Source: a virus (taxonomy: Duplodnaviria > Heunggongvirae > Uroviricota > Caudoviricetes). Taken from it: a stretch of 22,019 bases of DNA. Below the pieces are notes generated by a model that worked only from the letters and a program-made list of their open reading frames with translations, did no database searches and was not told where the DNA came from. Position numbers and translations under genes: made by a program. This document shows positions 1 through 14,318 of the stretch, piece after piece. The stretch's first letter is position 1, and each line of letters opens with the position of its first letter. The stretch lies in IMG/VR virus record IMGVR_UViG_2585427746_000008; one strand, 5' to 3'.

Positions 1-984
1 ATGACGGCGAAAACAGCACCGAAAGTCACGCTGTGGGAGTTCTTCCAGCAGTTAGGCAAAACCTTCATGTTACCCGTGGCATTATTGTCGTTCTGCGGCA
101 TTATGCTCGGCATTGGTAGTTCTCTTAGCAGCCATGATGTCATAACCCTGATCCCGGTCCTGGGCAACCCCGTGTTGCAGGCTATCTTTACCTGGATGAG
201 TAAGATTGGCTCGTTTGCTTTTAGTTTCCTGCCTGTCATGTTCTGTATCGCCATCCCGCTGGGCCTGGCACGCGAAAATAAAGGCGTAGCGGCATTCGCT
301 GGCTTCATCGGTTATGCGGTAATGAACCTCGCGGTAAACTTCTGGTTGACCAATAAAGGCATTCTGCCAACCACGGATGCCGCGGTTCTGAAAGCCAATA
401 ACATCCAGAGCATTCTTGGGATCCAGTCGATCGATACCGGGATCCTCGGTGCGGTGATCGCCGGTATTATCGTCTGGATGCTGCATGAGCGTTTCCATAA
501 TATCCGCCTGCCGGATGCGCTGGCATTCTTCGGCGGTACGCGCTTCGTACCAATTATCTCCTCGCTGGTGATGGGCCTTGTCGGCCTGGTGATTCCATTA
601 GTCTGGCCGATTTTCGCCATGGGTATTAGCGGCTTGGGCCATATGATAAACAGCGCGGGTGATTTCGGACCGATGCTGTTTGGTACCGGTGAACGTCTGC
701 TGTTGCCGTTTGGTCTGCATCACATTCTGGTGGCATTAATTCGCTTTACCGACGCAGGCGGCACGCAGGAAGTCTGCGGTCAAACCGTCAGCGGCGCACT
801 GACCATCTTCCAGGCGCAATTGAGTTGCCCGACCACTCACGGTTTTTCTGAAAGCGCCACGCGTTTCCTTTCGCAAGGTAAAATGCCTGCGTTTCTCGGC
901 GGTCTGTGTAACCAGGTAAATCATTTGATACCGACAAGGGTTTTAGTGAAAGGAGGTGAAATCACCTGTAAGATACTGAAATAA
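1..984 (+). CDS. malX: PTS sugar transporter EIIC domain (MalX-like), N-terminal ~302 codons only; frame runs into phage DNA after ~nt 906 and stops at 984 (disrupted gene)
   Basis: ORF starts at nt 1 with MTAKTAPKVTLWEFFQQLGKTFMLPVALLSFCGIMLGIGSS, a polytopic membrane protein typical of glucose/maltose-family EIIC. From memory this matches E. coli MalX. The last ~25 codons (CNQVNHLIPTRVLVKGGEITCKILK) are unrelated and coincide with the start of phage-end repeats. Confidence 0.6.
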   Translation: MTAKTAPKVTLWEFFQQLGKTFMLPVALLSFCGIMLGIGSSLSSHDVITLIPVLGNPVLQAIFTWMSKIGSFAFSFLPVMFCIAIPLGLARENKGVAAFAGFIGYAVMNLAVNFWLTNKGILPTTDAAVLKANNIQSILGIQSIDTGILGAVIAGIIVWMLHERFHNIRLPDALAFFGGTRFVPIISSLVMGLVGLVIPLVWPIFAMGISGLGHMINSAGDFGPMLFGTGERLLLPFGLHHILVALIRFTDAGGTQEVCGQTVSGALTIFQAQLSCPTTHGFSESATRFLSQGKMPAFLGGLCNQVNHLIPTRVLVKGGEITCKILK

Positions 985-1085
985 AACAGGTGATCGATGA
1001 TTCTGGAGGTTGTTTAGTTTTGATACTGATTAAATAAAATCCGGTATAAAATTAAGGTATCGGCAACAAATTTGATACTGCACAT
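905..1085 (+). repeat. attL-like terminal region with repeated putative transposase-binding sites
   Basis: Direct copies of TTTGATAC(C/T)G at 924-933, 1019-1028 and 1071-1080, a near copy at 971-978, and inverted imperfect copies (cggtataaa 1042-1050, ggtatcgg 1056-1063). Also a 9-bp perfect inverted repeat atcacctgt/acaggtgat at 961-969 and 985-993. Confidence 0.6.
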
Positions 1086-1211
1086 ACTGCTTATGGACGT
1101 TTTTAAAAGTACTTAAAATGTCTTTTATGCTAAAAAGTTTATATCAATATCGATCTGGTCACAAATCAAGTTGAAAGTGCTCGCTAAGTGCATGGCCTGG
1201 GCTTCATGGGG

Positions 1212-1730
1212 TTACGCTTTGGCTTCTTTATGGGTTAAATTGAAATGATGATCCTTGGTTTCATCTCCCTCGAAAATCTCTCTAACCTTTTGATCTGATA
1301 AATTATTAAGGCTCAATGCTGCCAGGCGTCGAATACCTGTTAAAGCGATCAACTCTTGATTCTCTTGATTGCAGAATTCCAGCAATTTTTCTACCCCTTT
1401 CCTTCTCAAGGTGTAAATAACTAATTCTTGCTCTTCTTGGCTCAAAGTGTCGATGAGTTCGAGCAACTCGCTATTGCCACCGTTCTTTTGAGGGGGCTGG
1501 TGTTTTATTTCTGCACTACCTGTAATGATGGAAACAACATGTGCAGGTAAGTCGCTTAAACGGTAGGCAAATGCTCTCCCTCTGATACCAGGTGTAGTTA
1601 CCGAACGTTTTTCCCATCCTTCATTTTTTGCTCGTTTATGAAGCCCAGCCAGAGATGAAGGAAGACCTCCAACCCCCAACAAGTCACTGGCAAGGATCCA
1701 TTCTTGGTCAAGGATCATATCAAACTCCAT
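1212..1730 (-). CDS. Mu c-like repressor with N-terminal winged-helix DNA-binding domain
   Basis: Leftward ORF directly inside the left end, as in Mu. The motif LPSSLAGLHKRAKNEGWEKR is nearly repeated at the N-terminus of the transposase (LPSSLAGLHKKAKREAWKTR), the arrangement known for Mu repressor and MuA. The real start may be the second Met at 1718, which has a GGAG upstream. Confidence 0.75.
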   Translation of the reverse strand: MEFDMILDQEWILASDLLGVGGLPSSLAGLHKRAKNEGWEKRSVTTPGIRGRAFAYRLSDLPAHVVSIITGSAEIKHQPPQKNGGNSELLELIDTLSQEEQELVIYTLRRKGVEKLLEFCNQENQELIALTGIRRLAALSLNNLSDQKVREIFEGDETKDHHFNLTHKEAKA

Positions 1731-1946
1731 TTGATATTAACTTTTGTTTATATCTTTATGTGGTTTATTTCAAAAATAACTCAATAAAAAACAAATAGAT
1801 ACAGAGCAAATTTAAAAATTTGAAATTAACCAGTTGATATTTACTAAGTTAATATCTAACATATCAAACATACACTAGTGAGTAACTCAATAGAGTAGCA
1901 CACATGAGTAATAAAGTTTGCCATAGAAAGTACACAGGGGGCCATT
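1731..1946. promoter_or_regulatory. AT-rich early operator/promoter region between divergent repressor and ner
   Basis: Very AT-rich 216-bp spacer. Perfect palindrome CAAATTTAAAAATTTG at 1807-1822. Candidate rightward sigma70 promoter TTGATA-N17-TAACAT at 1834-1862, bracketed by inverted repeat TTGATAT (1834-1840) and ATATCAA (1861-1867). Confidence 0.5.
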
Positions 1947-2192
1947 GTGAGTCTTATTGAAGATTGGTCTTCCGCCGATATAAAGGCAGCCTTAGAAAAA
2001 CGCGATACCAATTTGTCACGTTTATCAAGGGAAAATAATTTGCAGCCTAGGACTTTGGGTAATGCTTTGCGAGTTCCCTACCCTAAAGGTGAAAAGATAA
2101 TTGCTAGGGCTATAGGTGTAGAGCCACAGGTTATTTGGCCTACTAGATATGAACGACGTGCGCGGAGGAAATATGTGGGTTGCAATGACTGA
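1947..2192 (+). CDS. ner: Ner-like DNA-binding protein (Ner/Nlp family)
   Basis: 81-aa ORF with GTG start as first gene of the early operon. Resembles Mu Ner in size, position and motifs (LSRLSREN..., PKGEKIIA, PQVIWPTRY versus Mu PKGEQIIA, PEVIWPSRY). Confidence 0.8.
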   Translation: MSLIEDWSSADIKAALEKRDTNLSRLSRENNLQPRTLGNALRVPYPKGEKIIARAIGVEPQVIWPTRYERRARRKYVGCND

Positions 2193-4257
2193 ATTGATTT
2201 CATTCAGTGACCTACCTAGTTCTTTGGCAGGTCTGCACAAAAAAGCAAAGAGGGAAGCGTGGAAAACGCGGCTAAAACCAGGGGTAAAAGGGAAAGTTTT
2301 AGAGTGTGAAATAGGGGCTTTGCCTTTAACTGTTCAGCAGGCAGTACGCGAACGCTATGCCCTGCAACTGATGACGCAAAAAGCCGATGAATCACCGGCT
2401 CCGGTAGTGACAAAGGCCAGGCGCTCACCTGCCGTGGTTGATGCGGTGGAGGCATATCGCGGATCACCACAACTGATGCTCGAACGCCTCAATGCCCTGA
2501 CTGAAAACCAGCGCCAGGTGGCTGATGCACGAATCGCGATCGTCAGCGAAGTTCTGAAAGTCGCGCAACAACCTGGTTTCAGCTGTGCGAAGGCTATCCG
2601 GTTTATCGTTGACAACCTGGCACGTTCGCAACTGGACGAGCGCATTGTGGCAATGGTTGAGACGGCGAACGCCAAAAAGGGAAACAGCCGTGCGTTGAGT
2701 GAAATCACGCTGAAACGCTGGATTGCAGCCTTTAACAAGGCGCAGAACGCCGCTGAACGCCTGCTTTTGCTGGCACCTGGTAAGCGCCAGGAAATAAAAG
2801 CCGAAGATATTAACTGGCTGCCCGAATTTCTGGCGCAGTATCGCCAGTCAAACGGCCGACCAATGACCGAGGCTTACGAGGATTTTGTCGCTGAATGGCA
2901 GCACCGGCACGCTGATGAGCCTTATATGCTCGATATCATGCCGTCTTACGACACCATCCGCCGCGCAATGAAGAAACTGCCGGAAGTGGTGAAACAAAAA
3001 GGCCGGGTGACCGGCAGTGAATACCGCCAGCTTGAGGGATTCACGCGCCGCGACTGGTCCAGAATGCCGGTGAATTATGTCTGGATTGGTGACGGTCACG
3101 GCATGAAGCTGAAATGCAGGCACCCGGTTCACGGGCGGCCATTTGCACCGGAAGTGACCTTTGTTATCGACGGTGGCACGCGCTTTGTGGTGGGCTGGAG
3201 CCTTGACCTGGCTGAAAATGTTTTCGCCGTAGCCGGTGCCATACAGTACGGTATTCGTAATCACGGCAAACCGTTTCTGTATTACTCGGATAACGGTTCC
3301 GGGGAAACCGCCGACATCCTGGATAAGGAAGTTGTGGGGATCCTGCCGCGACTGGGGATTAATCACCCAACCGGGATTGCCGGTAACCCGCAGGGACGGG
3401 GCATTATCGAACGGCTTAACCGCACGTTACCGATGCGTATAGCCCGTAAATACCGCACCTATTTCGGGAAAGGTGCAGATCGCGAGACGTTACGCAAAAC
3501 CAACCGCGATTTACGCTCGGCATTTACCGCCCTGCAACAGGGCAAACGGCTGAACGCCCGGCAACAGTCAGCGATGCGTGATTTACCGTCCTGGTCTGAA
3601 CTGATTGATGCCATTCGTGATGGCGTTGAGTGGTACAACAACCGGCCGCACGATGAATTACCCATGAAGCCGAACGGGAAGCATTACAGCCCGGCGGAGT
3701 TCAGAAAAAAACGCCTGGCAGAAGAGGACACGGAAATTGAATGGCTGTCCGATGTTGAGCTGCGGGATATGTTCCGGCCAATGGTGGAACGCCCTGTAAG
3801 ACGCTGTGAAATACGCTGGCTGAATAATATTTACTACGCGCCCGAGCTGAGTGATGAGCATGGCCGCAAGGTGCTTATCAGCTATGACATTCATGATGCC
3901 GAACGAATTACCGTACGTCGCCCGGATGGCAGCGTGATTTGCGAGGCGGTATGGGACGGCAATAAACGCGAAGCCTTCCCGGTCAGCGCGGAATACTACA
4001 AACAGCAGCAACGCCTTAAAGGTATGCGTAAACGCGCAGAGGAAAAAATCCGTGATGCCGAGGATGAGGTTGTCAACGTGCTGGAGCACAAGCCGCAGGA
4101 GCCCTGGCTGGAAAACATATACCGCCCTGTGGGTAATACGGTGACCGTTCAGCAACCTGCCGTTGATGATGAGCCTGATGAAGAATACGAGCGTAATTTC
4201 CAGCGGGGATTGCAGTTGCTCGAAGCGAAATTAAAAGAAAATGACCCTCTGGCCTGA
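2173..4257 (+). CDS. DDE transposase (MuA-like)
   Basis: Roughly 695 aa. N-terminal winged-helix motif shared with the repressor. Catalytic-core-like motifs VWIGDGHG, YSDNGSGE and GRGIIERLNRTL are consistent with a D-D-E triad. GGAGG lies 4 nt upstream of ATG 2173; the gene overlaps the ner 3' end. Confidence 0.9.
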   Translation: MWVAMTELISFSDLPSSLAGLHKKAKREAWKTRLKPGVKGKVLECEIGALPLTVQQAVRERYALQLMTQKADESPAPVVTKARRSPAVVDAVEAYRGSPQLMLERLNALTENQRQVADARIAIVSEVLKVAQQPGFSCAKAIRFIVDNLARSQLDERIVAMVETANAKKGNSRALSEITLKRWIAAFNKAQNAAERLLLLAPGKRQEIKAEDINWLPEFLAQYRQSNGRPMTEAYEDFVAEWQHRHADEPYMLDIMPSYDTIRRAMKKLPEVVKQKGRVTGSEYRQLEGFTRRDWSRMPVNYVWIGDGHGMKLKCRHPVHGRPFAPEVTFVIDGGTRFVVGWSLDLAENVFAVAGAIQYGIRNHGKPFLYYSDNGSGETADILDKEVVGILPRLGINHPTGIAGNPQGRGIIERLNRTLPMRIARKYRTYFGKGADRETLRKTNRDLRSAFTALQQGKRLNARQQSAMRDLPSWSELIDAIRDGVEWYNNRPHDELPMKPNGKHYSPAEFRKKRLAEEDTEIEWLSDVELRDMFRPMVERPVRRCEIRWLNNIYYAPELSDEHGRKVLISYDIHDAERITVRRPDGSVICEAVWDGNKREAFPVSAEYYKQQQRLKGMRKRAEEKIRDAEDEVVNVLEHKPQEPWLENIYRPVGNTVTVQQPAVDDEPDEEYERNFQRGLQLLEAKLKENDPLA

Positions 4258-4334
4258 AATAAAAAAATAACCCGAGCGGCGACTCAGGTTATTTGATTAA
4301 ACTCGGAGAACTGTCTCAACGCGAGGTGAATAAT

Positions 4335-5267
4335 ATGACCGATATAAACGATGTAATCAAGACCATTGATGAACTTATTGATGGCGGCGTGCTGACGCAG
4401 TATGCCATCGCCAGAGAGGCGGGAATTTCCGACGGCACATTATCGGCTTTCCGCAAGGGGAAATATAAAGGCGATAACGCCGCTGTGGCTGCTTCCCTGC
4501 GCTCCTGGTATGAGAACTGGAATAAACAAAGCGCACTGCCGGAACCGCCGCAGTTTGTGGAAACTCAGACAGTCCAGGAGCTGCGCGCACTGTTTCAGGC
4601 GGTTCGCCTGATGGGCTGTATTAACGTTATTGTGGGCGTACCGGGTGTGGGTAAAACGGCCACTGCCCGTAATTACTGCCAGGAGCAACCAAACACCTGG
4701 ATGATCACCCTGTCACCCGCGCACTCCAGCGTCACGGAGTGTCTGCTGGAGCTGGCCGATGCGCTGGGGATTGATTACACCCGCGCGAACAAAGGGGCAT
4801 TATCCCGCGCCATCCGCCGTCGCCTGATGGGAACGCGTGGACTGGTGATTGTGGATGAGGCGGATCATCTTGGTATTGACGGTCTGGAGCAACTCCGGGC
4901 AATTCAGGACGCCACGGGGATCGGGATGGTGCTTATTGGTAACCCGCGCGGATTGTTTAAAGGTGGACGCCGCGCCTTTGATGATTTATCGCGCCTGTTC
5001 AGCCGTCTTGCCCGTACAAAACAACTTCGCAAGGCCAAAAAGGCGGATGTGCTGGCCATTGCCATGGCGTGGGGGATCAGTGGTGAGGCTGAGCTGGCCG
5101 TCATGCAGGCTATCGCTGAAAAGCCGGGAGCGTTACGCGTTCTGACACATACGCTTAACCAGGCGTGGCTCACCGCCAGCGGTGAAGGCGCGGCGCTGAC
5201 AGAAAAACATATTAATGCGGCCTTTAAAGAGGTTTATACCAACCCTGAATTACTCTCACAGGTGTGA
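4335..5267 (+). CDS. Transposition helper ATPase (MuB-like AAA+)
   Basis: Walker A motif GVPGVGKT and Walker B motif VIVDEADHL. Lies immediately downstream of the transposase. GAGGTGA RBS precedes ATG 4335; the ORF track start at 4293 lacks an RBS. Confidence 0.85.
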   Translation: MTDINDVIKTIDELIDGGVLTQYAIAREAGISDGTLSAFRKGKYKGDNAAVAASLRSWYENWNKQSALPEPPQFVETQTVQELRALFQAVRLMGCINVIVGVPGVGKTATARNYCQEQPNTWMITLSPAHSSVTECLLELADALGIDYTRANKGALSRAIRRRLMGTRGLVIVDEADHLGIDGLEQLRAIQDATGIGMVLIGNPRGLFKGGRRAFDDLSRLFSRLARTKQLRKAKKADVLAIAMAWGISGEAELAVMQAIAEKPGALRVLTHTLNQAWLTASGEGAALTEKHINAAFKEVYTNPELLSQV

Positions 5268-5269
5268 TT

Positions 5270-5491
5270 ATGGCGGTATTTAATATTCCTGATATTTACG
5301 GACGCTTTTACCTGGTTAATTTCGATAACGTGAAGGTGATTTCACTGGCCGAAAATAAAGAATGTGGCGATTTACTTTTTGAATTTAATGACCGCACACG
5401 AATGGTGATATCTGCCGGACTTGATCGCGAAGGTGCGACAGAAGTTTACAGCGGAATATGCCGTTCTGTTGGTGCGAAACAAGTCAGCTAA
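5270..5491 (+). CDS. hypothetical small early protein
   Basis: ORF with AGGTG RBS 7 nt upstream of ATG 5270; start is tightly packed against the B stop codon. Confidence 0.5.
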   Translation: MAVFNIPDIYGRFYLVNFDNVKVISLAENKECGDLLFEFNDRTRMVISAGLDREGATEVYSGICRSVGAKQVS

Positions 5492-5503
5492 ATGAGGTGT
5501 TAT

Positions 5504-5758
5504 ATGAATATGCAATCCTGCGGTAACAAAATGAATTTATTCGACTCCCTGAACAGCGCGCGCCGTCTGACCGAACTTGCCGGTGCGGTACTGGAACGCA
5601 GTAAGCGCTATCCGCAACGTTTTGCACTGAAAACCACGCCGCCGGTAGGCAACGTGCAGGGAACCGGTGAAATTGAAATCACCATACAGACCAACGGCCT
5701 GCGCCGCCGTGTGAAGGCCACCCGCATCAGCGGCTGCACGGTTTACTGGGAGGTGTGA
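5504..5758 (+). CDS. hypothetical small early protein
   Basis: ORF with AGGTG RBS 4 nt upstream of ATG 5504; same strand and tight packing as neighbours. Confidence 0.5.
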   Translation: MNMQSCGNKMNLFDSLNSARRLTELAGAVLERSKRYPQRFALKTTPPVGNVQGTGEIEITIQTNGLRRRVKATRISGCTVYWEV

Positions 5759-5759
5759 G

Positions 5760-5918
5760 GTGAAAAAAAATCTCATTGCATGGGCGTGGTCGAGTGGTCT
5801 TATTGAGTTTGGTTACGTCCTGCCGGAAGGTGCATTGCCGATAGTTGCCGGAAAGCCTGCCACGGTACGGCATGTGATTGAGGTTATGGCGCGTCATGGA
5901 CGTGATGAACAGGAGTAG
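5760..5918 (+). CDS. hypothetical small protein (52 codons, GTG start), possibly the N-terminal part of a longer gene interrupted by an in-frame TAG
   Basis: Not in the ORF track because it is under 60 aa. GTG at 5760 is preceded by AGGTGTGAGG. The same frame stays open for 40 more codons after TAG 5916-5918 and ends in a TGA that overlaps the next gene's ATG. Confidence 0.3.
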   Translation: MKKNLIAWAWSSGLIEFGYVLPEGALPIVAGKPATVRHVIEVMARHGRDEQE

Positions 5919-6037
5919 TTACTGGTTCCGGGGATACCGGAAGCGGTGACGGAGGAAGAAGCCTTTAATGCCATGATTCGGTTCTGCCGTGAGGTCAGAC
6001 GCCGGGTCAGTTATCCAAACAGAACGAGGACCAGAGG

Positions 6038-6310
6038 ATGAGTAAAGTCGTACGCATTATTTTCGAATACAAGGAGCACGTTATCCATAAAAACCCTGAT
6101 GGAACAGTGCGCATGGGGGTAAGTCTGGACATACGTTCAACCGGGATAAAGCAGAAAGGTGATGGACCCGCCATGATTTTTGGGGTGGTTATGCTCGCGG
6201 AAAGCAGAGACTTTGCTGAACTTGTAGCAATGAAAGCCAGTGCGCTCATGAAAGATATGAGCATGCGTTCCGGGGTTATTAAAGGTAATGAATTTAATCA
6301 GCAGGGGTAA
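6038..6310 (+). CDS. hypothetical early protein
   Basis: 90-aa ORF beginning MSKVVRIIFEY, in the early operon; its start overlaps the preceding TGA. Confidence 0.55.
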   Translation: MSKVVRIIFEYKEHVIHKNPDGTVRMGVSLDIRSTGIKQKGDGPAMIFGVVMLAESRDFAELVAMKASALMKDMSMRSGVIKGNEFNQQG

Positions 6311-6314
6311 TTCC

Positions 6315-6608
6315 ATGAGCAAAGTACGCGTTATTTTTGAATTTAATCATGTTTCGCATGACGAAAAGTTGGCAGGCAATGACTGTGTTGAAGTGCATGA
6401 AAAGATTGGAGTGGATGTGAAAACAGAACGTGATACGGATAACAGCCCGACGTCACTCTGTGACGTTTATGCAAGTATTCTCCAGTATCACAGTCCTGCA
6501 ATTATTCAGTTTCTCTCAGCGGAATTTCAGGCATCTGTACAGGCTTTTGGGGCGGATGCCATCATTAAACGCCACCGCGTGCATAAAGCATCAGGCACAC
6601 TGCAATAA
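6315..6608 (+). CDS. hypothetical early protein, paralogue-like to the preceding gene
   Basis: Begins MSKVRVIFEF, like the upstream neighbour's MSKVVRIIFEY. ATG 6315 follows the upstream stop closely. Confidence 0.55.
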   Translation: MSKVRVIFEFNHVSHDEKLAGNDCVEVHEKIGVDVKTERDTDNSPTSLCDVYASILQYHSPAIIQFLSAEFQASVQAFGADAIIKRHRVHKASGTLQ

Positions 6609-6619
6609 GGAAAAACAAA

Positions 6620-7150
6620 ATGGCTAAACGCGTTACAAAATTAAAGGCCGCAGCCGAGGCGGCACCGCAGACCCGGGAAGAAGTCAGTCGCGATATCCGT
6701 CGCTTTGGGGATATGCAGCGAGAGGCGCTGCGCCTGGAAACGGCAATGAATGATGAAGTGGCAGAAATCACCGCCCGTTATACGCCGCAGATTGAAAACC
6801 TTAAAAAAGAAATCAAAGTGCTTTTTAAGGGGATTCATGACTGGTGCAAAACCAACCGCGATGAGCTGACGAACGGTGGCGAAACCAAAACTGCCAATCT
6901 GACAACCGGAACGGTGTCATGGCGGCTGGAAAAGCCATCATGCAGCGTCAGCCGTGATGTGGAAGGTGTGATTGAAATGCTGCGCCGTATGGGGCTTGAG
7001 CGTTTCATCCGCACGAAAGAGGAAGTGAATAAGCAAGCCATTCTGGCGGAACCGGATGCGGTAAAGGGTATTGCCGGTATTAAGGTGAATAAAGGCGCTG
7101 AAAGTTTTTCTGTCGAGCCTTTTGAACAGGACGCCGGACTGAATAAATAA
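6620..7150 (+). CDS. gam: Gam-like host-nuclease inhibitor (Mu Gam / Ku-like DNA end-binding)
   Basis: 176 aa with blocks recalled from Mu Gam: MAK...K..AA, LRLETAMNDEVAEIT, NRDELTNGG, TANLTTGTVSWR, LERFIRTKEEVNK. AAGGAAA RBS upstream. Confidence 0.85.
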   Translation: MAKRVTKLKAAAEAAPQTREEVSRDIRRFGDMQREALRLETAMNDEVAEITARYTPQIENLKKEIKVLFKGIHDWCKTNRDELTNGGETKTANLTTGTVSWRLEKPSCSVSRDVEGVIEMLRRMGLERFIRTKEEVNKQAILAEPDAVKGIAGIKVNKGAESFSVEPFEQDAGLNK

Positions 7151-7247
7151 CACCGCATTAAATCTTTAGATATCACATTGTTTTAATTATGGCGCTCGCG
7201 TCAGAGGGCTGCTTGCGCCTGTAAACTGAAAATAAGGAACAGGAAAT

Positions 7248-7790
7248 ATGGCATATTTTTATTTCAAATTAGACAGAGCACAGACAAATAAATATTTCAC
7301 CAAATATCAACAGACTGTTTTACCGCTACGCAACAGTATTCTTCGGACGTTACTGAAAAATACAGGCGCTGCCGGATTGCGCTTAAAGCCGTTCGCCATG
7401 GACAGAATCAGTGAGTTTTATTTTGCCGGTGCTCTGCCTGCGGGCTGGCGTAAGCGCGATGATGTGGCTTTTATCGGTAGCGGACAGTGCTTTATAGCCA
7501 GACCTGATGAGTCATGCCCTGAAGGACCGGCGATTGCCACAATGGTTGAAGCCGCTGAACGCGATTTAAGAAAGCGACCTGATTTCCTTGTCTGGCTCTG
7601 TGAAAAGCTGGGGGTAATGAGAATGCCCTCCATGTTTAACACAGACTCCTGGTGGACCCCGTCTCTCTCCCGTGATGCCCTGTGCGTGGTGTTTAAAGTA
7701 GGTGCTTATGGCAGGGAAATAAACGGGCGTATTCCTGAAGAATGTCAGGAAATTAAACATTCTGAATATGTGGCGCTGACGGAGGAATAA
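7248..7790 (+). CDS. hypothetical protein, first gene of a translationally coupled four-gene cassette
   Basis: 180-aa ORF with AGGAACAGGAAAT RBS, following a 97-bp gap after gam. No family recognised. Confidence 0.55.
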   Translation: MAYFYFKLDRAQTNKYFTKYQQTVLPLRNSILRTLLKNTGAAGLRLKPFAMDRISEFYFAGALPAGWRKRDDVAFIGSGQCFIARPDESCPEGPAIATMVEAAERDLRKRPDFLVWLCEKLGVMRMPSMFNTDSWWTPSLSRDALCVVFKVGAYGREINGRIPEECQEIKHSEYVALTEE

Positions 7791-7793
7791 TTC

Positions 7794-8327
7794 ATGATAG
7801 ATGCAAAAGTGCTTGAAGGGGTTAAAAACTGGCTGAGCATTTACGGGCGTCTGACCTGCGGCGTTCTGGCTCAAAGAATGAATATGCCGCCATCCTCGAT
7901 GGTCTATTTTCTGCGTGATGCGGTTGATGCCGGTGTGCTGACAGAATGTAACGGTTTTTATGATATTCCGCGTCCCCGCCCGGTACAGCCGGTTCGTCGC
8001 AAATGCCGCCAGGAGTCTGTGGCTGATGATGTTCAGTGGTGCAGCTTCAGAAAATCCCTGCCGTGGGTTGAAGGGCATGATATTCCGTCGATGGCGTGGG
8101 AATTTGCGCAGGGCGTTCTGACCTGTGAAACCGTTTATGTGGTGGCTGAAGTTGATGAGCAGGCAATGAAAGAAGGTGTGCCCCAGTTTGTGATGGCGTA
8201 TATCGACATTCGCCTGGGGACCATTATCTGCGGTTTAAGCGGCTGGAATATCACCGAACATGTTCTGCGTTACCTGATTGTTGACCGGACGGCAGCGCCT
8301 GCCGGGATATCTGCGGAGGTGGCGTAA
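7794..8327 (+). CDS. hypothetical protein
   Basis: 177-aa ORF with GGAGG RBS, starting 4 nt after the upstream stop. Confidence 0.55.
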   Translation: MIDAKVLEGVKNWLSIYGRLTCGVLAQRMNMPPSSMVYFLRDAVDAGVLTECNGFYDIPRPRPVQPVRRKCRQESVADDVQWCSFRKSLPWVEGHDIPSMAWEFAQGVLTCETVYVVAEVDEQAMKEGVPQFVMAYIDIRLGTIICGLSGWNITEHVLRYLIVDRTAAPAGISAEVA

Positions 8328-8842
8328 TGTTCTTTAAAACATCGAACCCTTCCGCGCTGGCTGCGTGGCAAAAATATCAGCAGGACTGCCAGCAAGTTAA
8401 GGATGAGGCAAAACGCCTTGAGGCCGTGCTGAATGTTGAGTGCCGGTCGGTATTTGTATCCGGTATCAGCGGTTTTTGTTTTAAGGGGCTGCGTTTTACG
8501 AATGACAAATATCCTTTTCATCGTGATTTATGGCGAAAACCGACTGCGTCGAATGGCTGGAGCTGCACGCCGCGCACATCGCGCATTCCCAAAGCCCTGC
8601 GCACTGCCTCTGACGAACTGAACAGTCTGTGGCGTGAATATTCGCCCGTCACGTATGCCAGAACCGATGCCCTGTTGTTCTGGCTGGGCATTGATTTCTC
8701 AGCAATCCTGTATGGCCCTGTGGAGTGGTTCTGCGTTGACGATGTGATTTATCTTCAGTGCGGTGTAAAACCCGCAAATCAGAAAATGACCGAAATTCTG
8801 TCTGATGAGTTTTATGCTGCTGAAAAGCGAGTCAGGGGGTGA
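8327..8842 (+). CDS. hypothetical protein
   Basis: 171-aa ORF; its ATG overlaps the upstream TAA (GTAATG) and is preceded by GGAGGTG. Confidence 0.55.
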   Translation: MFFKTSNPSALAAWQKYQQDCQQVKDEAKRLEAVLNVECRSVFVSGISGFCFKGLRFTNDKYPFHRDLWRKPTASNGWSCTPRTSRIPKALRTASDELNSLWREYSPVTYARTDALLFWLGIDFSAILYGPVEWFCVDDVIYLQCGVKPANQKMTEILSDEFYAAEKRVRG

Positions 8843-8845
8843 TGC

Positions 8846-9397
8846 ATGATGAAATTACAACCCATGGGGCGAAAAGGTCGTGCACCTGCTCATGTCCGCC
8901 CGTGGACACCTGAAGAAGATGCGCTGCTGATTGCGCTTTATTCCTCCACCCCGGTTAAGGATATTGCCGCCAGAATAAAAAGAAGTGTCTGGGCCGTATA
9001 TAACCGGACTGGCGTATTGCGCAGTACATACCCGGAGTTGCTGAAATATAAACGACCGCGATTTACACCTGATGAAGATAAATTTATCCGAAAAAATGCC
9101 CGGACAATGACCTGCCAGCAAATGGGGGATTATCTCGGACGTAATAAAGACTCTGTCAGGTGCCGCGCAGGAATGATTGGTGCCGGATTAACAAAGTGCG
9201 GTGAGTTACGCCCCGGCACACGTATATCTGATGAGGATGTTCGTCTTATACGTGCACTACGGGATTCCGATTACCCTCGCCGTCTGTCATTCCGGGAAAT
9301 TGGCGAAAAGTTTGGCATATCTGAACATTCTGCTCACGCTGTTTATTACCGTCGACGGACCGCCGAGGACGCTGTATTACGGGAGTTAACGCCATGA
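8846..9397 (+). CDS. putative DNA-binding protein with three tandem helix-turn-helix-like repeats (Myb/SANT-like)
   Basis: Three spaced repeats: WTPEEDALLIALY...IAARIKRSVWAVYNR, FTPDEDKFIRKN...MGDYLGRNKDSVRCR, ISDEDVRLIRALR...IGEKFGISEHSAHAVYYRR. Strong AGGGGGTGA RBS. Confidence 0.5.
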   Translation: MMKLQPMGRKGRAPAHVRPWTPEEDALLIALYSSTPVKDIAARIKRSVWAVYNRTGVLRSTYPELLKYKRPRFTPDEDKFIRKNARTMTCQQMGDYLGRNKDSVRCRAGMIGAGLTKCGELRPGTRISDEDVRLIRALRDSDYPRRLSFREIGEKFGISEHSAHAVYYRRRTAEDAVLRELTP

Positions 9398-9579
9398 TAA
9401 AGAGACTTGTATTTTTCGCAATTATCGTTCCAGTGTGGGGGACTGGTTTTATATTTGCGATTACAGGAAACCTGTCCATTATGCCTGACATTTGGTTCTT
9501 TATCAGGATGTCGCTCTTCCTGTTTATTATGGATTTTCTCATCGGTATATACATTCGTATTTCCGGGAGGCGTAAATGA
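9394..9579 (+). CDS. small hydrophobic membrane protein (61 aa)
   Basis: Almost entirely hydrophobic (LVFFAIIVPVWGTGFIFAITG and FFIRMSLFLFIMDFLIGIYI), consistent with two transmembrane helices. Lies in a low-GC segment; the start overlaps the upstream stop. Confidence 0.45.
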   Translation: MIKRLVFFAIIVPVWGTGFIFAITGNLSIMPDIWFFIRMSLFLFIMDFLIGIYIRISGRRK

Positions 9580-9950
9580 GAAAAATCACGTCCTTGTCAG
9601 AGTTACAGGAGATGAATATGAGCATTGAATTAAGAACGTCTTATGAATATCGTAAAATTCTTATCGCCGGAGGTATGAAACCGGAAGATGCGGAAAAAAT
9701 CGTTTCTTTTATGGATAAAGAATGTGACAAACGGGATGTGCCAGAAATTATTATGGATGACATGATTCTGGATTCAGCCGTAGCGTTAAGTCCGTTATGG
9801 ATTGTGCATTCTCTTGCAGAAATTGCCAGAGGCACCGATAAAATGGCTGCTGTTGCTGCCCTTCAGACGCTTAATGAAATGCGTATATCTCCACGCCCGA
9901 CATTAATACATATGATTCTGTCCAGCATGGAGGATAAAGCTAATGAATAG
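9576..9950 (+). CDS. hypothetical protein (124 aa) in low-GC island
   Basis: GGGAGG RBS upstream; start overlaps the upstream stop (ATGA). Confidence 0.5.
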   Translation: MRKITSLSELQEMNMSIELRTSYEYRKILIAGGMKPEDAEKIVSFMDKECDKRDVPEIIMDDMILDSAVALSPLWIVHSLAEIARGTDKMAAVAALQTLNEMRISPRPTLIHMILSSMEDKANE

Positions 9951-10140
9951 TCTACCCGCTGGATGGGCGCGGCCATTGATGGCTAAGAAGCATCATTTTT
10001 TTAAAACAGGTGAAAATATCAGTATATGTGGGCGGTGGTTATATCTGGCTCATAATCGCGAGCCGGATACATTTGAAAGCCCTGATGACTGTGCCGAATG
10101 CCGCAGAAGACTGAATAAGGAGAAAGATAATGGACAGTAG
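9943..10140 (+). CDS. small Cys-containing protein, possible zinc-ribbon (65 aa)
   Basis: GGAGG RBS upstream. A Cys in ...SICGRW... and a later CAEC pair, about 20 residues apart, suggest a metal-binding knuckle. Confidence 0.4.
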   Translation: MNSLPAGWARPLMAKKHHFFKTGENISICGRWLYLAHNREPDTFESPDDCAECRRRLNKEKDNGQ

Positions 10141-10426
10141 TTCGCAGTTGTTCTGGTGTTTATATATCACATCGTTTTTCGGTGCATTCGTCATTACACG
10201 ATGGCTGTGCCGGAAAGTTATCAGTATTTTTCATAAAAAATACCTGATTGGGCTGGCGGCGGCTTCTCTGATTAATGCACTTGCCAGATATCATAAGGGG
10301 GAATACTACTCAAGAATAAAAACTGTTGATGGTTTTAATATTTTTGTGATTCCTCCGGAGTATCGGGTTCAGCTCGATCGGGAAAATAAAATCTATCATA
10401 TCAGCAGGAGTGTTGATACAGCATGA
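10130..10426 (+). CDS. small membrane-anchored protein (98 aa)
   Basis: AAGGAGA RBS upstream. N-terminal hydrophobic helix LFWCLYITSFFGAFVITRWL. Low-GC sequence. Confidence 0.5.
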   Translation: MDSSSQLFWCLYITSFFGAFVITRWLCRKVISIFHKKYLIGLAAASLINALARYHKGEYYSRIKTVDGFNIFVIPPEYRVQLDRENKIYHISRSVDTA

Positions 10427-10932
10427 GAGGGAAACTGATATCCGCCATTCATGTGGCAAAGCGCGAGCTTGCCCTGGATGATGAAACCTATACATTCGTG
10501 CTGCTGGCAGCCACCGGCAAATCCAGTTGCCGGGATATGTCACCGGATGAGTTATCCCGCGTGCTGGATGTTTTCAAAAAACGCGGTTTTAAAGTGCGTC
10601 AGAAACCGGTTAACCGGGCCTTAAAACCGGGTACGGTGACCGCCAAAATTCGCGCCATCTGGAAGGTAATGCACCGGCAGGGCTTTATCGCTGATGGCGG
10701 GGAAACGGCCCTTAACCGCTGGGTGAAGTCGCAGACGGCCGCGCAGAACGGTGGCGAAGGTGTGGCTAACTGGCAGTGGCTGGAGCAACACCCCGCACTG
10801 GCCTCGGATGTGCTGGAGCGTCTCAAACGCTGGCACCGTCGCAAGATGCTGGATGTGCTGGGGATGTCAGCGCGTACAGTGATGAGTTATGAGCGCGTTT
10901 GCAGGCTGTATGAAGAATCCTCCCCTTTTTAA
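10423..10932 (+). CDS. gemA: GemA-like protein (Mu gp16 family)
   Basis: N-terminus LISAIHVAKRELALDDETY...ATGKSSCRDMSPDEL is characteristic of the Mu gp16/GemA family as I recall it. It is the last gene before the early terminator, as in Mu. Confidence 0.7.
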   Translation: MRGKLISAIHVAKRELALDDETYTFVLLAATGKSSCRDMSPDELSRVLDVFKKRGFKVRQKPVNRALKPGTVTAKIRAIWKVMHRQGFIADGGETALNRWVKSQTAAQNGGEGVANWQWLEQHPALASDVLERLKRWHRRKMLDVLGMSARTVMSYERVCRLYEESSPF

Positions 10933-10936
10933 CCCC

Positions 10937-10968
10937 AAATCCCGCCACAGCGCGGGATTTTTATTTTA
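10937..10968 (+). terminator. Rho-independent terminator ending the early operon
   Basis: 9-bp stem AAATCCCGC / GCGGGATTT (10937-10945 and 10952-10960) with a 6-nt loop, followed by TTATTTT. Confidence 0.7.
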
Positions 10969-11002
10969 AACTTGCCCTGTGTAATGATGACCGGAGGCGG
11001 GT

Positions 11003-11425
11003 ATGGCTGAAACACAGATGAGCATGTTTGGTGACAGCGAACAGCTGCACGCGCTGATTGACCGTCTGGATGATATTCCTGATGATGAGCTGAAAAAGAA
11101 CTGGCCCGGCACGCTGCGGGACCTGGTTGATGTGATCAGTGCTGAACTGCACCGTCAGGGGATTGAACCTGCTCAGGCGGGAATGCTTGCCCGTAAGGTT
11201 GCAGCCGCACAGGCCGGGTACATGGGCGGGCGTGGTTATTATCTCCCGGTCGGTGAATCCCTTTTCACCGAACTGCGCAATAATGAAATTTTTTCCCGCT
11301 GGAGCCAGGGCGAAAAAATTGAAACCCTGCGCCGCCACTACCAGATGTCAGAGACGCAGATTTACTCCGTTATCCGCAACCAGCGTCGCCTGCATCAGGA
11401 ACGCACGCAGCCACGGCTTTTCTGA
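11003..11425 (+). CDS. Mor/C-family transcriptional activator
   Basis: 140 aa with a C-terminal HTH (ETLRRHYQMSETQIYSVIRNQRRL) resembling Mu Mor/C, including the conserved YLP..G motif (GRGYYLPVGESL). Located after the early terminator and before the lysis genes; GGAGG RBS. Confidence 0.75.
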   Translation: MAETQMSMFGDSEQLHALIDRLDDIPDDELKKNWPGTLRDLVDVISAELHRQGIEPAQAGMLARKVAAAQAGYMGGRGYYLPVGESLFTELRNNEIFSRWSQGEKIETLRRHYQMSETQIYSVIRNQRRLHQERTQPRLF

Positions 11426-11496
11426 TATTCCGCAAATCCTGCCCACTTTTTCCCACGGTTACGCTGACTCAGAGAACACCATGAGACAGCGTAACA

Positions 11497-11997
11497 ATGC
11501 CAAAACTCCCCGCACCCCTGCGTAAAAAGCTGATTGCCCTTGTTCTGGCCGGAGCCGGGACGTTCACCATTGCCACGCACTACACCGGCTACTGGGAAGG
11601 GAAAGAAAACACCACGTACATTGATCCCACCGGCACCCCCACCATCTGTTACGGCCATACCGGCCCGGATGTGAAACCGGGGATGACAAAAACTGATGAA
11701 GAGTGTCTGGAGCTGCTGGAAAAGGACATGAAATGGGCCTTTGCGGCTATCGATCGTCATGTTCAGGTGCCGCTTACCCGTGGTCAGACGGTGGCGCTGG
11801 CCTCCTGGATTTTCTGGGCCGGTGAAACGAACTTTCGCAACTCCACGCTCCTGCGCCTTATCAATGCCGGGCAGATGCCCGCGTCCTGTAAGCAGTATAT
11901 CCGCTGGATTTATTCAAAGGGGGTAAAACTCCCCGGTCTTGAGGCCCGCCGTTCGGCGGATGAATGGTTATGTCGTTACGATTTGCCGAAAGTCTGA
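11497..11997 (+). CDS. SAR endolysin (T4-type lysozyme fold, glycoside hydrolase family 24)
   Basis: N-terminal signal-anchor-like segment LIALVLAGAGTFTIA followed by catalytic-region motif YWEGKENTTYIDPTGTPTICYGHTG and NFRNSTLLRLINAG, resembling P21-type SAR lysozymes. Confidence 0.85.
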   Translation: MPKLPAPLRKKLIALVLAGAGTFTIATHYTGYWEGKENTTYIDPTGTPTICYGHTGPDVKPGMTKTDEECLELLEKDMKWAFAAIDRHVQVPLTRGQTVALASWIFWAGETNFRNSTLLRLINAGQMPASCKQYIRWIYSKGVKLPGLEARRSADEWLCRYDLPKV

Positions 11998-12074
11998 ACC
12001 GCTTCTGGCGACCGCTCATGATTGCGCTGCTGTGTGCCGTTGTGCTGCTGCGGGGTGTGCTGTGGCTGCGGTGA
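11964..12074 (+). CDS. candidate 36-aa hydrophobic peptide between endolysin and spanin genes
   Basis: Small ORF (MVMSLRFAESLNRFWRPLMIALLCAVVLLRGVLWLR) with one predicted TM helix, overlapping the endolysin 3' end. Not in the ORF track (under 60 aa) and no convincing RBS. Confidence 0.2.
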   Translation: MVMSLRFAESLNRFWRPLMIALLCAVVLLRGVLWLR

Positions 12075-12109
12075 ACAATCCCTTACCGGCCCTGATTGCC
12101 GGAGGCTGT

Positions 12110-12460
12110 ATGGCGGCGCTGGGGGTGATGAGCGTGCTGGCTGCCGTGGTATGGGGAATGCACCAGAAGACGCAGCGCCTTGAGGACAATAATCATGTGC
12201 TTGTGCGTGAACGGGACGAAGCCCGTCTGGTGCTGGCAAACCAGCAACGCACCCTGCAACTCATTTCACAAATCAGCAAGGCGGCCACGAATGAAAAGCA
12301 ACAGAACATTCAGCACAGCGAGGAACAGCAGAGCGTTGTCCGCCGGTCGCTGGCAACAGTGCCTGCGGCCTCTGTTCCTGTGCCTGATGATGTGGCTGAG
12401 CGGGTGCGCCGGGCCGTCTGTGAAATACGTGCCTGTGCAGCCGGTTCCGATCCCCGCTGA
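12110..12460 (+). CDS. i-spanin (Rz-like inner-membrane spanin subunit)
   Basis: N-terminal TM helix AALGVMSVLAAVVWGM followed by a charged helical periplasmic region. GGAGG lies 4 nt upstream of ATG 12110. The longer ORF from 11939 lacks an RBS and overlaps the endolysin. Confidence 0.65.
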   Translation: MAALGVMSVLAAVVWGMHQKTQRLEDNNHVLVRERDEARLVLANQQRTLQLISQISKAATNEKQQNIQHSEEQQSVVRRSLATVPAASVPVPDDVAERVRRAVCEIRACAAGSDPR

Positions 12461-12662
12461 ATGGCTGGCTGACTGCCTGGTCCCTCCTGCGCCGGAGCCG
12501 TTCACGTTTGGGGCATCGGTCACTTACAACCTGCAACTGCTGGCGGTAATCAAGAACTGCAACGTGGACAAGGCCAGTATTCGTCGTCTGGAGGCGCGGC
12601 GACAACATGAATTTACTGATATGGCCGGAACGCCTGCTGTTCCGGCAGGAAAGACGAAGTAA
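12291..12662 (+). CDS. o-spanin (Rz1-like outer-membrane lipoprotein), overlapping the i-spanin gene in another frame
   Basis: Lipobox LSGC followed by a proline-rich mature region (SVKYVPVQPVPIPAEW...PPAPEP). Starts inside the i-spanin gene in a different frame and extends past its stop. The exact start is uncertain; ATG 12291 gives an unusually long leader and an internal TTG may be used. Confidence 0.6.
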   Translation: MKSNRTFSTARNSRALSAGRWQQCLRPLFLCLMMWLSGCAGPSVKYVPVQPVPIPAEWLADCLVPPAPEPFTFGASVTYNLQLLAVIKNCNVDKASIRRLEARRQHEFTDMAGTPAVPAGKTK

Positions 12663-12669
12663 GGAAAAA

Positions 12670-12900
12670 GGTATGGATGATTCAGATTGTGCTCAGGCTG
12701 TCATGGAGCGGGCAACAGAACGCGCCCTTTGTGACCGGCTGACACGTAAGCGCCGGGTGGCGGAGACACCGGGCAGGCGTGTATGCGCGGACTGCGGGGG
12801 TGACATTCCGGCTGCCCGTCTGGTTGCCGTGCCGGATGCCATCCGTTGTGTGAACTGCCAGAACATCATGGAGGCCGGTCATGTGGGTCAGCATCGTTAA
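12670..12900 (+). CDS. TraR/DksA-family C4 zinc-finger protein
   Basis: CxxC...CxxC pattern CADCGGDIPAARL...AIRCVNCQ typical of phage TraR-like proteins. AAGGAAAAAGG RBS before ATG 12670. Confidence 0.7.
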   Translation, partial: GMDDSDCAQAVMERATERALCDRLTRKRRVAETPGRRVCADCGGDIPAARLVAVPDAIRCVNCQNIMEAGHVGQHR

Positions 12901-13192
12901 AGATTATGTTGTGCCGATCCTGTCGGCAACGGCCACGGCCGGGGGGATCTTCATGGCGCTGATGCGCAAAACCTTCGTCCCCCGCGAGGCCTTTGAAAAA
13001 CTCTCCGATCGGGTTGAGCGGGTGGAGAGCCGGATTTCCGGCCTGCCCACGCAGCAGGAGGTGAACAGACTCAATATCGAAATCACCACCCTGCGCGGTG
13101 AGCTAAAGGCCACCAACGCCACCCTGAAATCCGTCTCTCATCAGAACGAACTGCTGCTGGAGCAGGCTGTAAGGAAAAAACACAATGAGTGA
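12881..13192 (+). CDS. membrane-anchored coiled-coil protein, candidate releasin (Mu gp25-like)
   Basis: N-terminal TM helix (VVPILSATATAGGIFMAL) followed by a heptad-rich helical region. Its position after the spanins and TraR-like gene matches Mu gp25. Confidence 0.5.
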   Translation: MWVSIVKDYVVPILSATATAGGIFMALMRKTFVPREAFEKLSDRVERVESRISGLPTQQEVNRLNIEITTLRGELKATNATLKSVSHQNELLLEQAVRKKHNE

Positions 13193-13475
13193 TTTCATTA
13201 CTGAAGATCAGCGTCTTGTCATTCTGCGGTCGCTGGCGGATTACAACGGCGAACTGGGCGAATCCGTGCTTCAGGACTGCCTGGATGATTACGGCCACCG
13301 CGTGTCCCGCGACACCGTTCACACCCACATTGCCTGGCTTGCTGAGCAGGGACTGGTGCGTAAGCGCACGCTTGTTAACGGTTATTTCATCGCTGAACTG
13401 ACCGGCCGGGGTCAGGATGTGGCGGAAGGTCGTGCCACTGTTCCGGGTGTGAAGAAACCACGCGCAAGGGGGTAA
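13185..13475 (+). CDS. hypothetical protein, possible winged-helix (Mu gp26 position)
   Basis: 96-aa ORF with AAGGAAAAAA RBS; its start overlaps the upstream stop. Confidence 0.5.
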   Translation: MSDFITEDQRLVILRSLADYNGELGESVLQDCLDDYGHRVSRDTVHTHIAWLAEQGLVRKRTLVNGYFIAELTGRGQDVAEGRATVPGVKKPRARG

Positions 13476-13477
13476 CG

Positions 13478-14059
13478 ATGGATAAGCCGACGCGTGGCCG
13501 TGTACGCAAGGTGGATTTGCTCCCCGACAGCATTCGTAAGCCGCTGCTGGAAATGCTGCGTGAAAAACGCCTGACGCAGGTCCAGATCCGCGAGGAAATC
13601 AACCGTCTGATCCGTGAGGCAGGCCTGCCGGAAGAGCAGCAGCTTTCACCGGCGGCCATCAGCCGGGAAGCCTCCCGTAATGAGCTGATTGCCCGTAATC
13701 TGCGTGATTTACGCGAGCAGACAAAAGCCATGATGGCCGAACTGGGGGATAAGCCGACCGGTGAAACCACGGCACTGATTCTGGAGATGTCCCGTGCCCT
13801 GATGTACCGCCGTCTGCGTGCCGCCACCGAATCCCTGAACAGCGACAGCGATGTGGATATGCGCCTTATTAAGGACATCCTCCTGTCGGCACAGCGTGCG
13901 GAAAGTGCCGCCGAGCGCAGCATTAAGCGTGAAAAAGAAATCCGGGCCGCATTTGCTGAAGAGATGGCGAACGCCGTCACCGACGAGTTGCGCGGCGTGG
14001 ATGGCATGAGCGAGCAGATAGAATTCCGTATCAGGCAGATGCTGCTTGGTAAGGCGTAG
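13478..14059 (+). CDS. putative terminase small subunit (Mu gp27-like)
   Basis: N-terminal motif RKVDLLPDSIRKPLLEMLREKRLTQVQIREEINRL resembles Mu gp27-family proteins as recalled. Lies just upstream of the large terminase. Confidence 0.6.
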   Translation: MDKPTRGRVRKVDLLPDSIRKPLLEMLREKRLTQVQIREEINRLIREAGLPEEQQLSPAAISREASRNELIARNLRDLREQTKAMMAELGDKPTGETTALILEMSRALMYRRLRAATESLNSDSDVDMRLIKDILLSAQRAESAAERSIKREKEIRAAFAEEMANAVTDELRGVDGMSEQIEFRIRQMLLGKA

Positions 14060-14069
14060 GAGGTGAATC

Positions 14070-14318
14070 GTGGTAACAGATAACCGCTCACTGATGAGCA
14101 GTGCTCATCAGAAGGCATTCAGTCTTGCAACACAGTTACCTCCTGAAACCATAAAAGCGTGTCGTGAGTTGACTGAACTCAGCATTGCCGGGGAAATATC
14201 CCTGGAACAACTGCATTCGCTGCTGGCAGGGGCTGTCACTGATGAGTTGAGTGGCGTGGACGTGATGACTGAAGAGCTTGAGTTCCGAATCAAAAGCATT
14301 CTGACAGGTAAAGCCTGA
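14070..14318 (+). CDS. hypothetical 82-aa protein whose C-terminus duplicates the C-terminus of the upstream small-terminase-like protein
   Basis: Strong AGGAGGTGA RBS before GTG 14070. C-terminus AVTDELSGVDVMTEELEFRIKSILTGKA matches AVTDELRGVDGMSEQIEFRIRQMLLGKA of the 13478 product. Confidence 0.5.
   Translation: MVTDNRSLMSSAHQKAFSLATQLPPETIKACRELTELSIAGEISLEQLHSLLAGAVTDELSGVDVMTEELEFRIKSILTGKA

Follow-up and report, generated by a model that had tools for sequence, protein, structure and literature searches.

A Mu-like transposable prophage of the Sp18 type splits malX of Escherichia coli in two

The analysed stretch of DNA (22,019 nt, hereafter the window) starts with the 5' part of the sugar transporter gene malX of Escherichia coli and continues into a transposable, Mu-like prophage of the Sp18 type, which splits malX in two and represents a natural gene knockout. 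The left ~21 kb of the prophage are covered (907..22019, plus strand). The window stops where its source contig ends, at position 22,019 inside the head genes, and does not extend to the tail genes or to the right end of the phage.

In agreement with an earlier sequence-only reading, which had proposed a prophage inside a MalX-like PTS permease gene and a truncated gene fusion as the result, window positions 1-906 align with nt 1-906 of malX of K-12 MG1655 over 906/906 nt with 0 mismatches, and phage sequence begins at 907. This malX 5' fragment (1..906, plus strand) comprises codons 1-302 of the 530 codons for the PTS protein EIICB-Mal, and all 302 amino acids (302/302) are shared between the window and K-12 MalX. 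At the divergence point, position 907, the window reads TGTAACCAGGTA and malX reads CCAGGTGCAGCG. Frame 1 corresponds to MalX until ...SQGKMPAFLGGL, followed by CNQVNHLIPTRVLVKGGEITCKILK and a TAA stop codon at 982-984; the coordinates given in the earlier reading, an EIIC-like frame recognisable to about 906 and a stop at 984, were hence correct. The translation yields a truncated fusion ORF (1..984, plus strand), also present on public contigs, that encodes 327 aa, namely MalX 1-302 plus 25 residues contributed by the left end of the phage. Intact malX alleles part from the window exactly at 907 instead of remaining colinear with it through 907-984. A phage-free allele, which the same reading had suggested looking for, exists in K-12 and in many other strains; gene and flank together, 3,406 nt, contain a single mismatch.

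Intact MalX contains a full EIIC domain (aa 19-361) and an EIIB domain (aa 454-486) according to Pfam. In the fusion product, the Pfam match to PTS_EIIC (aa 19-300) covers profile positions 1-259 of 319, which is most but not all of EIIC, and EIIB is absent. Because the N-terminal product is left without the last fifth of EIIC and without the EIIB phospho-cysteine motif (NCITRLR), which stays in a 241-aa ORF downstream, truncated MalX is expected to have lost transport.

Since the source of the window is a draft contig ending within the prophage, the junction between malX and the phage could in principle be a mis-join made during draft assembly. The chance that it is such a chimera is negligible. 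An artefact is excluded because independent assemblies in NCBI, ENA and Logan contain the identical 327-aa fusion ORF on at least 23 contigs, with 'Escherichia coli 4-203-08_S4_C3' as one example. In addition, the break lies exactly at the phage terminus that is defined by insertions in complete genomes, and the reciprocal ORF at the right junction is found on 19 contigs (see below). The exact fusion protein has been deposited as KDU65874.1 and KEL07377.1, and the 10,984 nt in which the window overlaps with JOQQ01000025.1 (GCA_000714175.1) are 100% identical.

To define the phage ends, both junctions of ten independent insertions were extracted; the sources were five whole prophages, three further genomes (Sakai among them) and the record of an Stx2c phage. 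The left terminus is TGTAACC in every one of the ten, with differing host bases in front of it, and the right terminus is always ...GGTATCAAAAAAATCGCCGCGCTATA. The insertions thus share the termini TGTAACC...GCGCTATA; as the right end reads ...CTATA, the phage ends are of the form TG...TA. We assign the left end (attL) to 907..1090 on the plus strand, based on the terminus common to ten insertions with unrelated flanks and on an enriched sequence motif. The breakpoint had previously been considered ambiguous by about 2 nt, with the phage starting at either 905 or 907. The ambiguity is now settled in favour of 907, and position 905 is discarded, since the host bases before TGTAACC differ between the ten insertions.

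The target-site duplication is 4 bp long in 10/10 insertions (TCTG, CGAG, TTTT, CTGA, TGCT, CGCA, TGCC, TAAA, CATC and one more). Its left copy in the window is TCTG at 903..906 (no strand assigned), as indicated by all ten other insertions and by the ORF at the malX right junction. The 5-bp duplication that the sequence-only reading had expected was not borne out. From what is known of phage Mu, one would anticipate a 5-bp duplication, here GTCTG, together with TG...CA ends and a phage end at 905, and a TG is indeed also present at 905-906. Such canonical behaviour has practically no probability left for the phage described here. The base in front of the right-hand repeat is always an A of the phage, and a 5-bp duplication is excluded because this A disagrees with the host base at 8/10 sites; the variable bases before TGTAACC place the end at 907, and the ORFs predicted for a 5-bp junction are absent from the public collection.

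These predictions concern the malX right junction, which lies outside the window. The expected junction was built from the phage right end, either TCTG (4 bp) or GTCTG (5 bp), and malX from nt 907 onward, and the ORFs were derived from it. In the 4-bp model, the DNA would read ...ATCGCCGCGCTATA, followed by TCTG and then CCAGGTGCAGCG. The ORF predicted by this model consists of MQIGIKKIAALYL plus MalX 303-530 and has 241 aa; a protein look-up found an exact copy of it in NCBI, ENA and Logan data, on 19 contigs in all. Three 5-bp junction ORFs with alternative start codons were absent from the same public collection in an exact look-up. The reciprocal malX junction and the TCTG duplication are thereby confirmed at the protein level. 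The sequence beyond the right phage end, which the earlier reading had suggested aligning with malX, is represented by an ORF that runs from the phage end through TCTG into malX from codon 303 onward.

The 'first phage-end repeat' that had been noticed at the breakpoint is real. The motif TTTGATAC occurs at 924, 1019 and 1071, and the window contains 4 copies of it against 0.41 expected. Putative transposase-binding repeats are L1 with the core TTTGATACC (924-932), L2 (1019-1028) and L3 (1071-1080), the latter two both reading TTTGATACTG; a weaker repeat, AAGATACTG, lies at 970-978 and an inverted repeat, GGTATCGG, at 1055-1062. The left end carries 3-4 copies of the TTTGATAC type and the right end three or four. 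The assignment of the ends is further supported by the position of GATAC, the core of the first end repeat, which starts at nt 21 counted from the terminus on either side.

The genes next to the left end are those of a transposable phage. Transcribed towards the malX fragment is a gene for a repressor of the Mu c type (1212..1730, minus strand; Pfam HTH_Tnp_Mu_1, E=1.6e-6), whose N-terminal domain is similar to the Mu repressor. It is followed on the plus strand by a ner-like early regulator (1947..2192; Pfam HTH_35, E=6.7e-27), a 694-aa transposase of the MuA family (2173..4257) and a 310-aa MuB-type AAA+ target-capture ATPase (4335..5267). The transposase matches the Pfam families Mu-transpos_C (E=3.7e-17), HTH_Tnp_Mu_1 and, weakly, rve, and aligns collinearly with MuA (22% identity, E=2e-14); the ATPase matches Phage-MuB_C and AAA_22 and is 48% identical to Mu B (BLASTP E=5e-97). 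When the transposase sequence was searched against the PDB, the MuA I-alpha domain and retroviral integrase cores were matched and the MuA catalytic core was not, a result that shows divergence and nothing more. In the remainder of the window, Pfam searches on the called genes of JOQQ01000025.1 and comparison with a related prophage reveal Kil, Gam, GemA/Mor and further early genes, followed by lysis and head genes, the last two groups assigned from the related annotated prophage. A related complete prophage in O157:H7 Balcarce_24.2 has a length of 39,284 bp, and its left-end segment is 99.9% identical.

TTGATAT / ATATCAA repeats in direct and inverted orientation cluster between the repressor and ner genes, at 1710-1870, and one further copy is located downstream of the repressor gene at 1133-1147. 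These repeats resemble the TTGATAC end repeats and probably represent operators or an enhancer. ARAGORN detected a tRNA nowhere in the window; in the related prophages L013 and L016, a 'tRNA-OTHER' called by PGAP (at 18487-18566 and 22529-22616, respectively) lies between the genes for head morphogenesis and those for virion morphogenesis, at a position equivalent to ~18.9 kb of the window.

The same phage occurs in other strains. The segment 907-2200 is found in ten complete E. coli genomes at 99.7-99.9% identity and in three more at about 97.5%, and the left end is located, at 99.8-99.9% identity, at unrelated loci, including qor, hyfF, ypdA, torZ and a site beside yahO; sorM, other prophages and an Stx phage also harbour insertions. 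The immunity region with the repressor and ner genes, which is contained in 907-2200, is common to only 13 complete genomes. In about 220 other genomes, several of O157:H7 among them, the match is limited to 88 nt at the very beginning of the left end, which points to heteroimmune mosaic variants as for Mu and D108. The right-end sequence is present in 226 complete genomes, including that of O157:H7 Sakai, where it is annotated as 'prophage Sp18, Mu-like phage'.

The near-random insertion of Mu-type phages, on which the sequence-only reading had relied, is borne out by ten other sites that are unrelated and carry differing 4-bp duplications. Targeted insertion, with malX acting as an attachment site or strong hotspot of a site-specific phage, is accordingly highly improbable, even though TCTG is also duplicated at the qor insertion and the archetype Sp18 likewise resides in a PTS gene, sorM. 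Apart from the scatter of the other insertions, the phage has the A and B transposition genes and no integrase. Moreover, an insertion in malX is present in none of 5,426 complete E. coli genomes, although 226 have the right end of the phage. In that search, 5,417 of the 5,426 genomes matched the query, all matches listed were to malX and ended at 906, and the malX-phage junction was spanned in none of the 5,426.

Behind the malX junction, the prophage has been lost to different extents in different carriers. Window positions 4805-21719 are deleted in carriers L002-L004, a deletion extends from window position 3293 to the tail-fibre region in L008, and a break is seen at window position 2600 in L005; in all of them the malX junction is identical. 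Because the same junction carries differing internal deletions, we infer a single ancestral insertion that was inherited and then decayed. That the junction arose several times independently, rather than once with subsequent vertical inheritance, is very unlikely, given that it is nucleotide-identical in a phage that otherwise uses many sites and that several internal deletions behind one junction fit inheritance followed by decay. The flanks do not discriminate between the two possibilities: over 8.7 kb they are near-invariant, with 99.95-100% identity among carriers and 99.97% to phage-free K-12, which leaves a single clone unproven by this region. SNPs in the flanks were for this reason dismissed as proof of one clone, phage-free K-12 being equally close.

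Two other features of the carriers were observed. Between the tail genes that remain in L002-L004 and their counterparts in the O157 prophage, identity is only about 75%. The beta-glucuronidase gene uidA is split into ORFs of 295 and 309 aa in L001-L004, L006 and L009, and is intact (603 aa) in L005, L007, L008 and L010, suggesting that one sub-lineage of the carriers has acquired a frameshift; in L001 (JOQQ01000025.1) the split gene occupies 4907-6717, which is about 3.3-5.1 kb upstream of where the window starts. The malX::prophage allele can serve as a lineage marker in which stepwise decay of a prophage is visible, and with its series of in situ deletions it could provide a natural time series for the decay of transposable prophages.

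Taken together, it is almost certain that, in a K-12-like E. coli, an Sp18-type phage integrated into malX by DDE transposition at codon 302/303. For the individual steps of the transposase and the ATPase, the pathway established for Mu serves as the model. The transposase of the MuA family would have recognised the TTTGATAC-type repeats at either end of the phage, with the MuB-type ATPase presumably assisting by delivering the target DNA. The two 3'-OH phage ends would then attack phosphodiester bonds of malX that are 4 bp apart, and gap repair by the host would duplicate TCTG. The predicted product consists of malX' (codons 1-302 with a tail of 25 codons), a prophage of ~39 kb, 'malX (codons 303-530) and malY. 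It is likely that Sp18-type phages in general use a variant of Mu transposition, characterised by a transposase only ~22% identical to MuA, asymmetric TG...TA ends and a 4-bp staggered cut.

For the host, the insertion also affects the second gene of the operon: cut off from the malX promoter by ~39 kb, malY is probably not expressed from that promoter. The malXY genes form an accessory operon that is normally repressed by MalI. Because of this repression the knockout phenotype may be mild, and as malXY is an accessory operon the physiological effect of losing malX is probably small. The importance of the insertion lies mainly in annotation. The locus should be described as malX split by a transposable prophage of the Sp18 type, and not by the name 'EIIC family protein' (327 aa) that the deposited records use. 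The exact termini TGTAACC...GCGCTATA and the 4-bp duplication will help in the automatic delimitation of prophages, because tools that assume the 5 bp and TG...CA of Mu will misplace the ends. The event itself is an ordinary one, in which a known kind of transposable prophage has disrupted a dispensable sugar-transporter gene. Phages of this family, their random mode of insertion and also the 4-bp duplication are all on record, and what is new is one more insertion site.

Regarding the duplication, a 2021 review-style introduction lists only duplications of 5 and 6 bp for transposable phages, and describes their ends as TG-CA (or TA-TA) (PMC8705779). None of the papers searched states the duplication length of Sp18-type phages. 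The 4-bp duplication is nevertheless already on record, though discussed in no paper found; the sole record is a feature annotation in GenBank entry LC727881.1.

The prophage is a member of the Mu-like Sp18 group, as it possesses A and B genes and a divergent repressor/ner pair, occupies many unrelated sites and generates a short duplication. With bacteriophage Mu (Muvirus mu) it shares the left-end layout of repressor, ner, A and B, followed by Gam, Mor, lysis, head and tail genes, the invertase and com/mom, as well as its transposable nature, near-random gene-inactivating insertion and multiple repeats at each end. It differs from Mu in the sequences of A (22% identity) and B (48%), in the consensus of the end repeats (TTTGATAC), and in a 4-bp duplication with TG...TA ends where Mu has 5 bp and TG...CA. 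No Mu record was among the nucleotide matches in a megablast search of a phage genome collection. Phage Mu proper (Muvirus) was rejected as the identity of the prophage on the grounds of the duplication, the ends, the low identity of A and the lack of a nucleotide match in that search.

A closer relative is Mu_JNE082796 (LC727881.1), with which 81% of window positions 907-8000 align at 96% identity; in its GenBank entry, the depositors marked identical termini as well as a 4-bp 'duplication due to insertion'. Mu_JNE082796 is inserted in an Stx2c phage, whereas the prophage of the window resides in a chromosomal sugar-transporter gene. Sp18 itself has been described as an intact, packaged, non-circularising, transposable prophage whose locations vary by strain (PMC2669165, PMC7430833, PMC10132054). 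In the Sakai genome (NC_002695.2; 5040334-5040987 and 5079720-5079917) it is annotated at 5040971-5079729, and its true termini are at 5040970-5079724. Sp18 of E. coli O157:H7 Sakai and its STEC relatives have the same termini as the prophage described here, TGTAACCAGGT.AATCATTTGATACC... on the left and ...GGTATCAAAAAAATCGCCGCGCTATA on the right, and agree with it in gene order, variable insertion sites and the 4-bp duplication. Sp18 also interrupts a PTS gene by its own insertion, in this case sorM, while the prophage of the window is located in malX of a host with a K-12-like malX allele.
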